From positions 72,070 to 136,069 of the forward strand of contig CBDAQY010000003.1 in the NCBI GenBank assembly GCA_965199215.1: DNA of 64,000 bases, in the 5' to 3' direction. The translations under genes were made by a program, and so were the position numbers. This DNA is from Acidobacteriaceae bacterium. GTDB taxonomy: Bacteria > Acidobacteriota > Terriglobia > Terriglobales > Acidobacteriaceae. Under the pieces are notes generated by a model. That model saw nothing but the letters and a program-made list of their open reading frames with translations. It did not search any database and had not been told where the DNA came from. This document shows positions 17,907-62,390 of the stretch, piece after piece; the first letter of the stretch is position 1, and every line of letters starts with the position of its first letter.

Positions 17907-17937
17907 GATCCCCTGTCTCGATCTGAGACATAGGATC
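17907..17937 (+). repeat. repeat family C hairpin (between convergent mutS2 and the hydrolase gene)
   Basis: gatcccctgtctc-gatct-gagacataggatc. Confidence 0.75.
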
Positions 17938-24900: not shown

Positions 24901-24938
24901 CAGGCTCCCGTGTCTCGATCCTGAGACATGGGAGCCTG
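24901..24938 (+). repeat. repeat family C hairpin, terminator-like, between convergent genes
   Basis: caggctcccgtgtctc-gatcct-gagacatgggagcctg is a 16-bp stem with one G-T pair. Confidence 0.85.
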
Positions 24939-45016: not shown

Positions 45017-45111
45017 CTTCAACCCCCTAGACGATCCCTGTTGGTAACAGATTGAATTCTCCACTGTAAAGTTGGGTATCGTATTCGGGCGCCCTACTCC
45101 ATTGCGCCTTT

Positions 45112-45145
45112 GTCTTCCGCGGATGGGTGGGATCCACGATCTCGG
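45112..45145 (+). repeat. motif family D
   Basis: gtcttccgcggatgggtgggatccacgatctcgg, 68 bp upstream of yidD. Confidence 0.55.
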
Positions 45146-45212
45146 TCCCGCCACAACGAGAAGCGATAGCATAGTACCGGACACGAGCGCCGGAGAGGTC
45201 GGCACCGTACCC

Positions 45213-45485
45213 ATGGTCGACTCCGCTCTCCCATCAGATCCGCTCCCGCTCCGCCTCGCCTTCGCCGTCTACAAGCGAGTCCTCTCACCCATCGCCCACG
45301 CGATCAGCCCCACCCAATGCCTCTACCTTCCCACCTGCAGCGAATATGCCTACGTAGCGCTCCACCGCTTCGGCCTCACTAAAGGCTCCTGGCTTGCCCT
45401 CAAACGGCTCGCCCGCTGCCATCCCTTCGCCAAGGGCGGCCTCGACCCTGTACCTGAATCTGGGCGCCCCGGATCTCGATTCTGA
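45213..45485 (+). CDS. yidD: membrane protein insertion efficiency factor YidD
   Basis: YKRVLSPI...[46 protein letters not shown]. The last 9 codons and the stop lie in repeat C3. Confidence 0.85.
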
Positions 45486-45497
45486 GATGTGGGATTC
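45467..45497 (+). repeat. repeat family C (supplies the yidD C-terminus and stop)
   Basis: ccccggatctcgattctgagatgtgggattc. Confidence 0.75.
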
Positions 45498-52653: not shown

Positions 52654-54738
52654 CTACAGCACCGCCGACTTCCCCTTCACCAACCCAGCCGCCCGGTCCA
52701 CAAATGCCTCTAACGAAACCCCACCCTCATCGCCCTTACCCCGCGTCCTCACGCTGACGCTCTCGCTCGCCGCTTCTTTGTCCCCCATGATCAGCACAAA
52801 CGGCACCTTCTGCAGCATGAACTCGCGAATCTTCGCATTCATCTTCTCGTTCCGAGCGTCGAGCTCCACCCGCAGCCCCGCAGCCTCTAAGCGGCTCTTC
52901 ACCTGCGAAGCGTACTCAAGGTGCTTATCCGAAGAGATCGGCACCAACCCAATCTGCACCGGTGCAAGCCACATCGGAAACGCACCCGCATAGTGCTCGA
53001 TCAGCACGCCGAAGAACCGCTCGACCGACCCAAACAGCGCCCGATGCACCATCACCGGCTGATGCATCTCGCCGTCTTCGCCCTTGTACTCAAGCCCGAA
53101 TCGCGCGGGCAGATTGAAATCAAATTGCACCGTCGAAAGCTGCCACAACCGCCCCAGCACATCGACCAGCTTGATATCAATCTTCGGCCCATAGAATGCG
53201 CCTTCTCCCGGTATCGCTTTGAACGAAACCCCGCGCTTCGTCAGCGTCTGCTTCAGCGTCGCTTCCGCCTTCTCCCAGTCGGCCTCGCTGCCGACGAACT
53301 CGCCAGCCTTCTTCGGATCGTGCAGCGACAGTTCAACCCGGTACTCCTCAAACCCAAACGTCTTCAGCACCGCCTCGGCAAAGTCGAGACAAGCCTCTAT
53401 TTCACTGTCGATCTGTGCGGGCGTACAAAAGATATGCGCATCGTCCTGGGTAAATCCACGCACCCGCAGCAGTCCATGCATCGTTCCCGACCGCTCATAC
53501 CGATACACATTTCCCAGCTCCGCATACCGCACCGGCAGATCGCGATAGCTCTTCGGCGAGTTCTTATAAATCAAAATGTGCCCGGGGCAGTTCATCGGCT
53601 TCAGCCGGTACTCGGCATCGTCCAGCTCCATCGGCGGATACATATTCTCCGCATAGAACCCCTCGTGCCCCGAGATCTTCCACAGCTCCCGCCGCATGAT
53701 GTGTGGCGTGTAGACCATCTCGTACCCGCGCCGAATGCACTCATCGCGCATCCAGTCTTCCATCGTCTTGCGGATCAGACCGCCCTTCGGATGCCAGAAG
53801 ATCAGCCCCGATCCCGCTACCTCCTGGATCGAAAACAGATCGAGCTGCTTACCCAGCACGCGATGATCGCGCGCCTTGATCTCCTCAAGCCGCTTGAAGT
53901 GCGCGTCCAAATCCTTGGCATTGAAAAAGGCAGTCCCATAGATCCGCTGCAGTTGCTGGTTCTTCTCATCGCCCAGCCAGTAAGCCCCCGCAACCGAGGT
54001 CACCTTGAACGCCTTTACCCGTCCCGTCGAAGGAACATGCGGCCCCCTGCAGAAGTCCGTAAACCCACCATTCTTGTAAAGTGAAATCTCGTCACCCGGC
54101 TTGGTAAACCGTTCAATGAAGTGGACTTTCATGAACTCGCCCTGAGCCTCATAATCCGAGAGCCCTTTCTCGCGAGTCTCTTCCTCCCGGACGAACTTTT
54201 CATCCCGCGCCACCACCTCGGCCATCCTCGCCTCGATGGCCGCGAGATCAGCATCGGAAAACGGCGTCTCCCGATAAACGTCATAGAAGAACCCCGCATC
54301 CGTCGCCGGCCCATGCCCCAGCTTGGTCTCCGGAAACAGTTCGAGAATCGCCGTCGCCATCACATGCGCCGCCGAGTGCCGCACCACTCTCAGCGCGGCC
54401 TCGTCATTCTCCTTCAGCAACTCCAGCGCAACATCCTCATTCAGCGGCGCCCCCAGATCCACCAGCCTCTCGCCGGCCTCTTGATGGACCCCATACATCG
54501 ACTCCTCCGCCGAATCCGGGTGCCCCATATCTCGATTCTGAGATGTGGGGTCTTCACCCTCACCCTCATCGGTCTTCTTCAGCGGCTTCACCCGAGCCAC
54601 CACGACCGCCGCCGCCAACCTCGGCGAGATACTCATCGCCACGTCCAGCGGAGTCGTTCCCTTCGCCACCTCGCGCACCGAACCATCCGGCAACTGCACT
54701 CGAATCATCTGCGCCGTCTCAACCATCAGCTCACTCAT
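52654..54738 (-). CDS. thrS: threonine--tRNA ligase (with an insertion in the TGS domain)
   Basis: TGS N-terminus, HSAAHVMA editing-domain motif, class II motifs (FRRE-like HIMRRELW, GFTQDDAHIF, GAFYGPKID) and an anticodon-binding C-terminus. Confidence 0.93.
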   Translation of the reverse strand: MSELMVETAQMIRVQLPDGSVREVAKGTTPLDVAMSISPRLAAAVVVARVKPLKKTDEGEGEDPTSQNRDMGHPDSAEESMYGVHQEAGERLVDLGAPLNEDVALELLKENDEAALRVVRHSAAHVMATAILELFPETKLGHGPATDAGFFYDVYRETPFSDADLAAIEARMAEVVARDEKFVREEETREKGLSDYEAQGEFMKVHFIERFTKPGDEISLYKNGGFTDFCRGPHVPSTGRVKAFKVTSVAGAYWLGDEKNQQLQRIYGTAFFNAKDLDAHFKRLEEIKARDHRVLGKQLDLFSIQEVAGSGLIFWHPKGGLIRKTMEDWMRDECIRRGYEMVYTPHIMRRELWKISGHEGFYAENMYPPMELDDAEYRLKPMNCPGHILIYKNSPKSYRDLPVRYAELGNVYRYERSGTMHGLLRVRGFTQDDAHIFCTPAQIDSEIEACLDFAEAVLKTFGFEEYRVELSLHDPKKAGEFVGSEADWEKAEATLKQTLTKRGVSFKAIPGEGAFYGPKIDIKLVDVLGRLWQLSTVQFDFNLPARFGLEYKGEDGEMHQPVMVHRALFGSVERFFGVLIEHYAGAFPMWLAPVQIGLVPISSDKHLEYASQVKSRLEAAGLRVELDARNEKMNAKIREFMLQKVPFVLIMGDKEAASESVSVRTRGKGDEGGVSLEAFVDRAAGLVKGKSAVL
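54518..54552 (+). repeat. repeat family C inside the thrS coding sequence
   Basis: ccccatatctc-gattct-gagatgtgggg, translated on the minus strand as PTSQNRDMGHP. Confidence 0.85.
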
Positions 54739-54799
54739 AAGCTCTTCTATCCCTCACAAACTCGTCGATCAAATCGGTGTCATCCAGAACCCTGAACCC

Positions 54800-54863
54800 G
54801 TGTCATCCCGAGCGGCGTAGTTCGCTCGCCTTCTCGCGAACTACGCAGTTGAAGGATCTCCGG
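54800..54863 (+). repeat. repeat family B
   Basis: Head gtgtcatcccgagcgg, hairpin cgtagttcgc..gcgaactacg, tail cagttgaaggatctccgg. Confidence 0.85.
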
Positions 54864-55084
54864 TGGCCTGTTCTCACTTCGCCCGCTAGATCCACCCAGA
54901 CATTACAAGCATATTTGCTTTAGCTTCCACGCGCACCAACGTGTCATGCATGCCCGCCCCTATTGTTCCGTTGCCTTGACCAGTTAGGGGCATGTTCCGT
55001 TGTCACTCCAGACAGTAGCTTGCTCATATGCCTCGCCCGGCGCGAGCGTGTTCGCATCTGTTTCCGCATTTAGGAGGGTCCCCA

Positions 55085-55387
55085 ATGCACCAGGTTCTCT
55101 GTACTCTTTCCCATGAAGGCAGCGACGTCCGTTGTACCGTCTGCGGCCAGGGTTTTCTCGTCTACTGGTCCCGTTTCTCGCGCGCCGAGCAGGCGGAATG
55201 CCGCCGCGTCGTCCAGGAGCAGCTCCGTGAACATCATGTCTTCGCGAAAGATCCCGGAGCGGATCGCCGCATCCATCCTCGCGCGCCCTTCAACGTTCCC
55301 GATTGGACTGGTCTCCCGCACTTCTCGGCCGCCGCCCTCCTCGGCAACTCCAAATCCATCTCTCTCGAGTTCGAAGACGTAGCCTGA
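55085..55387 (+). CDS. hypothetical protein
   Basis: AGGAGG RBS, 100 aa, single CxxC. No family recognised. Confidence 0.45.
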   Translation: MHQVLCTLSHEGSDVRCTVCGQGFLVYWSRFSRAEQAECRRVVQEQLREHHVFAKDPGADRRIHPRAPFNVPDWTGLPHFSAAALLGNSKSISLEFEDVA

Positions 55388-62362: not shown

Positions 62363-62390
62363 CTCCATGTCTCGCTTCTGAGAAATGGGC
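62363..62390 (+). repeat. repeat family C, degenerate
   Basis: ctccatgtctcgcttctgagaaatgggc. Confidence 0.55.

Follow-up and report, generated by a model that had tools for sequence, protein, structure and literature searches.

The stretch of DNA analyzed here (the window) comprises 64,000 nucleotides of contig CBDAQY010000003.1 from an Acidobacteriaceae bacterium (assembly GCA_965199215.1, positions 72,070 to 136,069). It carries on the minus strand an intact thrS gene for threonyl-tRNA synthetase (ThrRS), and one copy of a short, dispersed palindromic repeat is translated within that gene. We assigned thrS (52654 to 54738) from the open reading frame (ORF) list, Pfam, and an alignment. The 694-residue protein contains the Pfam domains TGS, tRNA_SAD, tRNA-synt_2b, and HGTP_anticodon in this order (E = 2e-9, 9e-15, 2e-49, and 3e-21, respectively), which is the four-domain arrangement (TGS-SAD-core-anticodon) of a class II bacterial ThrRS. 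It is 80 to 92% identical to 59 aligned relatives. No variation occurs at C384, H435, or H565 in the 60-sequence alignment; these residues lie in the motifs KPMNCPGH, DDAHIF, and VMVHRA. We take them to be the Cys/His/His zinc ligands of the catalytic site, equivalent to C334, H385, and H511 of the E. coli enzyme.

The TGS domain is split by a loop. The Pfam match covers residues 12 to 51 (54586 to 54705, minus strand), which correspond to profile positions 1 to 40 of 60. This first part of the TGS (N1) domain is modeled by AlphaFold2 (AF2) with a predicted local distance difference test score (pLDDT) of 88 to 92. The domain resumes with GERLVDLGAPLNEDVALELL (residues 89 to 108; 54415 to 54474, minus strand), where alignments with Protein Data Bank (PDB) structures restart and AF2 again places strands. 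Between the two parts is a 38-codon loop (residues 51 to 88; 54475 to 54588, minus strand) at the turn of the TGS β-hairpin, as located by an anchor search, the PDB alignments, and AF2. The phmmer alignments with solved ThrRS structures ended at residues 47 to 50 and restarted at residues 90 to 92. Between these anchors there are 3 residues in 1QF6, about 4 in 1NYQ, and about 41 in the window ThrRS. On either side of the loop, the domain order and sequence are like those of the solved E. coli (1QF6) and S. aureus (1NYQ/1NYR) N1/TGS domains. However, the turn has 3 to 4 residues in those structures, whereas the Acidobacteriaceae clade has 26 to 48 residues there. An earlier reading of the DNA letters, made without database searches (the sequence-only reading), had placed 38 extra codons in TGS at 54475 to 54588, and the anchor search and PDB alignments reproduced these coordinates exactly.

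The loop is a composite with the sequence KPL-KKTDEGEGED-PTSQNRDMGHPDS-AEESMYGVHQEA. The initial KPL is nearly invariant among relatives. It is followed by a lineage-specific acidic spacer, KKTDEGEGED (residues 54 to 63; 54550 to 54579, minus strand), whose DNA contains a GAGGGT GAGGGT duplication. In the DNA alignment, the nearest relatives lack this spacer and have 4 to 5 residues instead (GSVE, ASLE, or EKVEN). Next comes the repeat core, whose 33 nucleotides (54517 to 54549, minus strand) are exactly codons 64 to 74 (PTSQNRDMGHP), as delimited by the contig pile-up and the metagenome pattern described below. The segment shared with a sister copy elsewhere in the window is 39 nucleotides long (54512 to 54550, plus strand; 34 of 39 bases identical) and adds GGATTC, which encodes Asp75-Ser76. 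The loop ends with the tail AEESMYG-VHQEA (residues 77 to 88; 54475 to 54510, minus strand). Its E-x-x-M-Y motif was recognized in the 60-sequence alignment and in the loops of relatives; E78 and Y82 are invariant in the alignment, and M81 is at least 90% conserved. Because the relatives' loops and the tail predate the repeat, only 11 to 13 of the 38 codons (33 to 39 of 114 nucleotides) are repeat. The remainder is spacer (10 codons) and ancestral loop, including the 12-codon tail.

The repeat forms a hairpin at 54523 to 54550 (ccccatatctc-gattct-gagatgtgggg), with arms at 54523 to 54533 and 54540 to 54550 and a loop at 54534 to 54539. The 11-bp stem has one odd pair, which is T-G on the plus strand and C-A in the mRNA. 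The predicted fold energy is -15.3 kcal/mol for the mRNA sense (z = -2.75) and -22.8 kcal/mol for the antisense. Three claims of the sequence-only reading were therefore borne out, namely a complete hairpin unit at this position, its weaker orientation with a C-A mismatch in the mRNA, and an intact frame in which the repeat is translated inside thrS. A repeat finder with a seed of 6 overlooked this hairpin, since the mismatch in the middle breaks each arm into 5-mers; visual inspection and folding confirmed it. Hairpins with an 11-bp stem, at most one mismatch, and a loop of 3 to 8 nucleotides gave 22 register hits at about 13 sites in the window, compared with a shuffle mean of 2.55. A scan of 54200 to 55000 found no terminator-like and no promoter-like site, and Rfam gave no match at E up to 1 across 54300 to 55200. 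The hairpin thus lacks both the U-tract of an intrinsic terminator and a curated RNA match of the riboswitch or thrS leader kind.

The insertion was also found in metagenome contigs. One from run X1 is identical to the window over 54349 to 54800, which includes the whole insertion, and one from run X2 is identical over 54300 to 54546 and stops inside the hairpin. No insert-free allele of the same strain was seen in public runs; the joints found there belong to relatives with 85 to 90% identity. In soil metatranscriptomes (5% of words matched), the thrS present was that of a relative with a different loop, 30 nucleotides shorter, and not the transcript of the window organism.

The repeat has the consensus CCCAYRTCTC-AGAATC-GAGAYRTGGGGCACCC, which GGATTC extends to a unit of 33 to 39 nucleotides. 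A wider consensus is (a/t)CCCAYRTCTC...GAGAYRTGGGGCACCC-GgaTTTGTGG. The closest sister copy in the window lies at 45456 to 45494 (plus strand) and overlaps the 3' end of a small ORF (45072 to 45485, plus strand); 100 shuffles produced no match to the thrS copy as good as its 34 shared bases. A diverged copy at 24901 to 24938 has a 21-bp extended stem and folds at -39.8 kcal/mol (z = -9.9). A similarity scan of the window found three more diverged copies, at 17907 to 17937, 62363 to 62390, and 459 (all four on the plus strand). The window therefore contains two close and four diverged copies in 64 kb. With its second copy in the window and its metagenome copies, the center of the loop is a genuine member of a dispersed repeat, as the sequence-only reading had proposed. 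Its further proposal, that the same element forms hairpins between genes elsewhere in the window, fits the copy at 24901 and applies only loosely to the other, diverged copies. All six copies (459, 17907, 24901, 45456, 54512, and 62363) are oriented alike and have GATTCT as their plus-strand loop.

We scanned JGI metagenome contigs with CCCAYRTCTCAGAATCGAGAYRTGGGGCACCC. The exact 32-nucleotide pattern occurred in at least 120 contigs from soil and peat, with 125 copies among the matches listed. The flanks are unrelated, apart from a weak consensus in which an A/T-rich base precedes the unit and GgaTTTGTGG follows. At the two variable positions of the stem, 89 of the 125 copies have complementary bases (CA/TG 41, CG/CG 27, and TG/CA 21). 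The CA/TA variant of the window is a common subfamily (22 of 125). Another GGG[GC]CACC tag lies within 80 nucleotides in 22 of the 125 copies, compared with about 9 expected. We found no target-site duplication, since k-mer sharing between the 20-nucleotide flanks of 121 copies did not exceed that of shuffled flank pairings. The repeat thus does not show the terminal inverted repeats with target-site duplication of a miniature inverted-repeat transposable element. GTAG and CGTC tags are absent from both strands of the consensus.

The unit boundaries were defined by run contigs placed on 54300 to 54800. Their depth rose 20- to 100-fold only over 54504 to 54554, in metagenomes and metatranscriptomes, and loose contig ends fell mostly at 54516 to 54518 and at 54549. 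Therefore, the dispersed unit is 54517 to 54549, which is 33 nucleotides or codons 64 to 74. In metatranscriptome runs X23 to X25, labelled as soil RNA-Seq, the core depth over 54504 to 54554 was about 100 times that of the flanking thrS, which suggests that many repeat copies are transcribed, although DNA carry-over may contribute. Some runs contained contig joints that go back 33 or 34 nucleotides, from 54549 to 54516/7, and these represent head-to-tail arrays elsewhere. Members of the CA/TA subfamily often lie in a larger composite (in L091, L100, L109, L124, L175, and L191, among other contigs), with a second hairpin, GGTTCGCGCnnnGCGCGAATG, directly upstream and AGATGTGGGCCACCCGCC about 25 to 35 nucleotides downstream; the thrS copy consists of the core only. 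Among single-mismatch variants of the 125 copies, the AGAATC strand has C-A (and the opposite strand G-T) 30 times and T-G twice. Such a strong strand asymmetry might arise if it is the GATTCT strand that folds, or from a founder effect of one subfamily.

We compared about 200 ThrRS sequences, from the 120 nearest protein clusters and 80 species-level genomes. All 120 clusters, which are 670 to 716 residues long when full-length and have Granulicella, Edaphobacter, and Acidobacteriaceae as named sources, carry an insert at the site. So do all 80 species-level genomes, Tunturiibacter among them. The relatives' loops are most often 27 to 28 residues long. The common species-level loop has R/KPL, about 13 variable and often acidic residues, (S/T)E(A/E)xMY(G/A/S), and 3 to 4 residues before GERLVDL, and in the species representatives this 27- to 28-residue form contains no recognizable repeat. 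The E-x-x-M-Y motif is present in the relatives' loops listed, including those at 12 loci recovered from 14 that a regular expression had missed. The loop is absent from all 12 of the next 50%-identity cluster representatives that we read (at most 52% identity, 634 to 678 residues). These results contradict the claim that the whole segment of about 38 codons is repeat DNA inserted into a canonical TGS domain; only 54512 to 54550 is repeat, and a loop, usually repeat-free, occupies the site throughout the clusters and genomes compared. The sequence-only reading had also held that conservation in ThrRS of distant lineages would count against an insertion. We found the loop conserved in close relatives and missing from the 12 distant enzymes.

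The variable part of the loop has been occupied by repeats of several kinds. Type-A subfamilies encode PTSQNRDVGHP, PTSESPDVGHP, or PMSEDPDMGHP and are perfect or near-perfect units. A second hairpin family likewise ends in TGGGGCACCC (as in PTLRDETAKDGAPG and PTHDDGTVMDGAPG), and a third type is a GTRDQG-type repeat whose DNA is not a hairpin. Other loops contain decayed copies (PTSQKLDVGRP, PTSLNRDMGQA, and PTPQNPEMEHP). The thrS loop of P0005 (L206) has a tandem head-to-tail pair from different type-A subfamilies, CCCATGTCTC... and CCCACGTCTG...; in the same loop, the motif CCGGATTC is duplicated after the tandem units. The strict type-A pattern matched four times in 1.5 Mb around the relatives' thrS genes, twice inside thrS loops. 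Because the pattern is so rare there, these surroundings are unsuited to an estimate of copy number.

The distribution of these loops suggests both inheritance and turnover. In the DNA alignment, the repeats of the window, P0001, P0005, P0007, and P0008 occupy one and the same codon position, so the window copy was probably inherited rather than gained in this strain. P0026 and P0030, neighbors of the window on the ThrRS tree, have unrelated 28-residue loops. Loop types are interleaved on the loop-masked tree, with a parsimony count of at least 28 changes on 119 tips compared with a mean of 45 for shuffled labels, although the tree is shallow and gain and loss counts are rough. In thrS copies of the repeat, 10 of 10 stem pairs are kept in P0001, L012, and L135, 8 of 10 in the second P0005 copy, and 7 of 10 in P0008. 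Neutral decay predicts such a range.

We ran AF2 on the 60-sequence alignment and used the model solely to contrast the loop with the TGS domain. The pLDDT was 88 to 92 for residues 11 to 50, below 50 for residues 56 to 87, and 27 to 31 for residues 61 to 80. It recovered to 10-residue block means of 87 to 90 for residues 91 to 110, with strands at 91 to 93 and 103 to 109. A weak helix was placed at residues 76 to 82, over the E-x-x-M-Y motif. The sequence-only reading had described an acidic surface loop. The predicted disorder of the added peptide fits a putative surface loop.

The same repeat is translated in other genes. At least 10 of the 125 sampled copies (about 8%) lie inside long ORFs. 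In nine of these, Pfam domains of a single protein lie on both sides of the unit or around it; the proteins, all on metagenome contigs, are LigD, MutS2, PriA, GlmS, HolA, MnmG, TsaD, a histidine phosphatase, and a ketoacyl synthase. An Edaphobacter-type thrS (L135) accounts for the tenth. We saw three reading frames used, two sense and one antisense; the repeat has five open frames, with the peptides PTSQNRDVGHP, PHISESRCGAP, PHLRIEMWGT, GAPHLDSEMWG, and VPHISILRCG. The thrS case agrees with the parallel that the sequence-only reading had drawn with in-frame repeat capture in mutS2 of the same genome; the MutS2 copy that we saw ourselves lies on a metagenome contig. Some of these ORFs contain more than one unit. 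The TsaD (Kae1/Gcp) ORF (L093, 4235 to 5680, minus strand) has at least six in-frame units of two families between Pfam TsaD stretches, including THISESRYGAP, PTHDDETVMNGAP, PTRDGETVTNGAP, and PTSQNRDVGHP, a repeat load far above that of thrS. The MnmG/GidA ORF (L160, 7 to 2196, minus strand) has two in-frame copies, GAPRLDSETWD and GAPHLDSEMWE. The GlmS ORF (L126, 4896 to 7919, plus strand) has GAPRLDSETWV and a second, similar peptide, GAPGLASETWD.

Two known classes of repeat resemble this one. Repetitive extragenic palindromic sequences (REPs) are multicopy palindromes of 20 to 40 bp that usually lie near gene ends and are sometimes located wholly inside ORFs and translated (Di Nocera, De Gregorio and Rocco 2013, PMC3733652). 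Intragenic REPs have been described in tRNA synthetase genes of X. oryzae, E. litoralis, and S. alaskensis, and different REPs occupy about the same recB site in two Xanthomonas species (PMC3733652). Like them, the thrS repeat is a short imperfect palindrome (10- to 11-bp stem, 6-nucleotide loop, 32- to 39-nucleotide unit) with many dispersed copies in unrelated flanks (at least 120 metagenome contigs). Unlike them, it has no GTAG/CGTC tag at the stem end, its host is an acidobacterium, and a single loop has been colonized by at least three repeat types across a bacterial family. TIRYT genes have been reported in other Acidobacteria. Rickettsia palindromic elements (RPEs) occur in frame in many unrelated housekeeping genes, where they are tolerated and thought to be compatible with the protein surface (PMC10969869). 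The thrS repeat is similar in that it lies in frame in many unrelated protein-coding genes. However, RPEs are about 100 to 150 bp long, encode a conserved peptide, and belong to obligate intracellular alphaproteobacteria, whereas the thrS repeat has 33 to 39 nucleotides and is found in free-living soil Acidobacteriaceae. It is therefore not an RPE by size or host. This kind of event is already known and is not a new mechanism. Our literature searches found no description of in-frame palindromic repeats in Acidobacteria.

We suggest that the thrS segment is an inherited copy of a tolerated selfish repeat in a permissive, clade-specific loop of the ThrRS TGS domain, with a probability of roughly three in four. 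The clade of Granulicella, Edaphobacter, Tunturiibacter, and relatives has a loop between two TGS β-strands, with a hypervariable acidic first part and the conserved E-x-x-M-Y tail. In the window, one REP-like palindromic unit of 33 to 39 nucleotides sits in the hypervariable part, in frame, encoding PTSQNRDMGHP(DS). The unit is probably a passenger, either selfish or neutral. AF2 predicts a disordered loop, which is probably permissive, so that insertions that keep the frame and contain no stop may survive selection on an essential gene. Such copies may later decay, or further copies may replace or join resident ones. The mRNA hairpin (about -15 kcal/mol, no U-tract) would be a by-product that ribosomes read through, and the enzyme would work as an ordinary ThrRS. 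The in-frame copies of the same repeat in other genes speak for the generality of such tolerated copies.

Several observations weigh against this interpretation. Repeat-bearing loops are not simply the base loop plus 33 nucleotides, since P0001-type loops lack about 10 residues of the variable part. Therefore, each event was a replacement or was followed by a deletion. In P0007 compared with P0001, one stem pair is changed on both sides (TCTC/GAGA to TCTG/CAGA), with two amino acid replacements, and possible causes are gene conversion from another copy, re-insertion, and selection for pairing. On the shallow tree, the number of changes could be inflated by recombination between relatives, which would look like recurrent gain. 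Lastly, the AF2 model is poor overall: with so shallow an alignment, its mean pLDDT is 65 and its confidence in the catalytic core is low.

We weighed this interpretation against several others. The original proposal, a canonical TGS domain with a single family insertion of about 38 codons made up entirely of repeat DNA, gains from the perfect family member at the center of the segment and from the upstream spacer GGGTG..., which can pair with CACCC downstream of the hairpin and so lengthen the stem. It is nevertheless highly unlikely: a loop is present in all of the approximately 200 relatives examined and is mostly repeat-free, the pile-up of other copies is confined to 54504 to 54554, and AEESMYG is an ancestral conserved motif. 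A misjoined repeat or a pseudogene is next to excluded. Repeats can in principle cause misjoins, and we found no specific support for one here; the X1 and X2 contigs match across or into the insertion, the repeat occupies the same codon position in related organisms, and the gene has an open frame with its conserved residues intact. A functional hairpin, which as an mRNA or DNA structure might tune translation by pausing for TGS folding, mRNA stability, or autoregulation, is also very improbable. The stem is almost intact in the window and perfect in P0001, L012, and L135, the P0007 stem pair is changed on both sides, and the sense fold has a z score of -2.75. However, most relatives have no hairpin at all, the orthologous stems of P0008 and of the second P0005 copy are decayed, and broken stems are implied for P0011 and P0062 by their peptide variants. 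In addition, the orientation in the mRNA is the weaker one, we found neither a U-tract or terminator-like site nor an Rfam match, and identical units occur in many unrelated genes and spacers. We give as little credence to a peptide selected as protein, in which an acidic or His-Pro loop would give ThrRS a regulatory site or an additional contact, either with tRNA or with a partner. All type-A ThrRS loops use the hydrophilic frame PTSQNRDVGHP, and the loop is acidic throughout the clade. Yet among close relatives whose enzymes are otherwise 80 to 92% identical, the peptide is freely variable or missing, and AF2 predicts it to be disordered. Common descent together with selection against hydrophobic frames would likewise lead to a single frame.

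Two further alternatives give the repeat a larger share in the history of the loop. In one, ancient repeat insertions made the whole clade loop, the E-x-x-M-Y tail was domesticated (for example, from a ...SESRYGAP frame), and resident copies attract new ones. The tail SEASMYGA does resemble the other sense frame of the repeat, S-E-S-R-Y-G-A-P, and TCGATGTATGGGG resembles TCGAGATATGGGG, but these similarities are short and require a one-codon indel. Tyr codons of the loop are TAT in 58% of cases versus 39% in the rest of thrS, a codon test that is weak and whose count ignores relatedness. Some apparently repeat-free loops (PAGETAEDEAT) look like decayed type-B copies (GETAKDGAP), the metagenome copies cluster beyond expectation, and P0005 has its tandem pair. 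Against this, GGG after MY is not enriched (15% versus 23%), and the sequences compared include no loop-less close outgroup for dating. We consider a deep origin of this kind rather unlikely, and a derivation of the MY tail from the repeat is speculation. In the other, the ThrRS TGS loop is an active, self-renewing integration hotspot, the variable part of which is wholly repeat-derived and turned over, with the E-x-x-M-Y tail as a domesticated remnant. Resident REP-like copies would recruit others by adjacent insertion or by gene conversion from other genomic copies. We regard such a hotspot as unlikely, at a somewhat lesser degree of doubt. If it were true, Acidobacteriaceae would be a free-living counterpart of Rickettsia, with palindromic repeats building and remodeling protein loops across the proteome (mutS2, LigD, PriA, TsaD, and others).

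One ThrRS loop site is conserved across about 200 Acidobacteriaceae sequences, and at least three repeat types, decayed to differing degrees, have filled it; the in-frame copies span DNA-repair, replication, and tRNA-modification genes. These loops offer a natural series for studying how selfish DNA makes and remodels disordered loops, which loops of essential enzymes tolerate insertions, and how peptides encoded by the repeat inflate the annotation and alignment of acidobacterial proteins.

The thrS leader holds another repeat at 54800 to 54845, 5' of the thrS start, which the sequence-only reading had assigned to its family B. It includes a perfect-looking hairpin, CGTAGTTCGCTCGCCTTCTCGCGAACTACG, at 54816 to 54845, about 80 to 110 nucleotides before the thrS ATG. 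This hairpin matched no Rfam family (T-box or thrS leader). Lastly, Acidobacteriaceae-type thrS genes with the clade loop were found at four loci (L027, L041, L047, and L056) in metagenome-assembled genomes labeled as Verrucomicrobia, Rhodanobacteraceae, or Lichenicola, and these contigs were probably misbinned.

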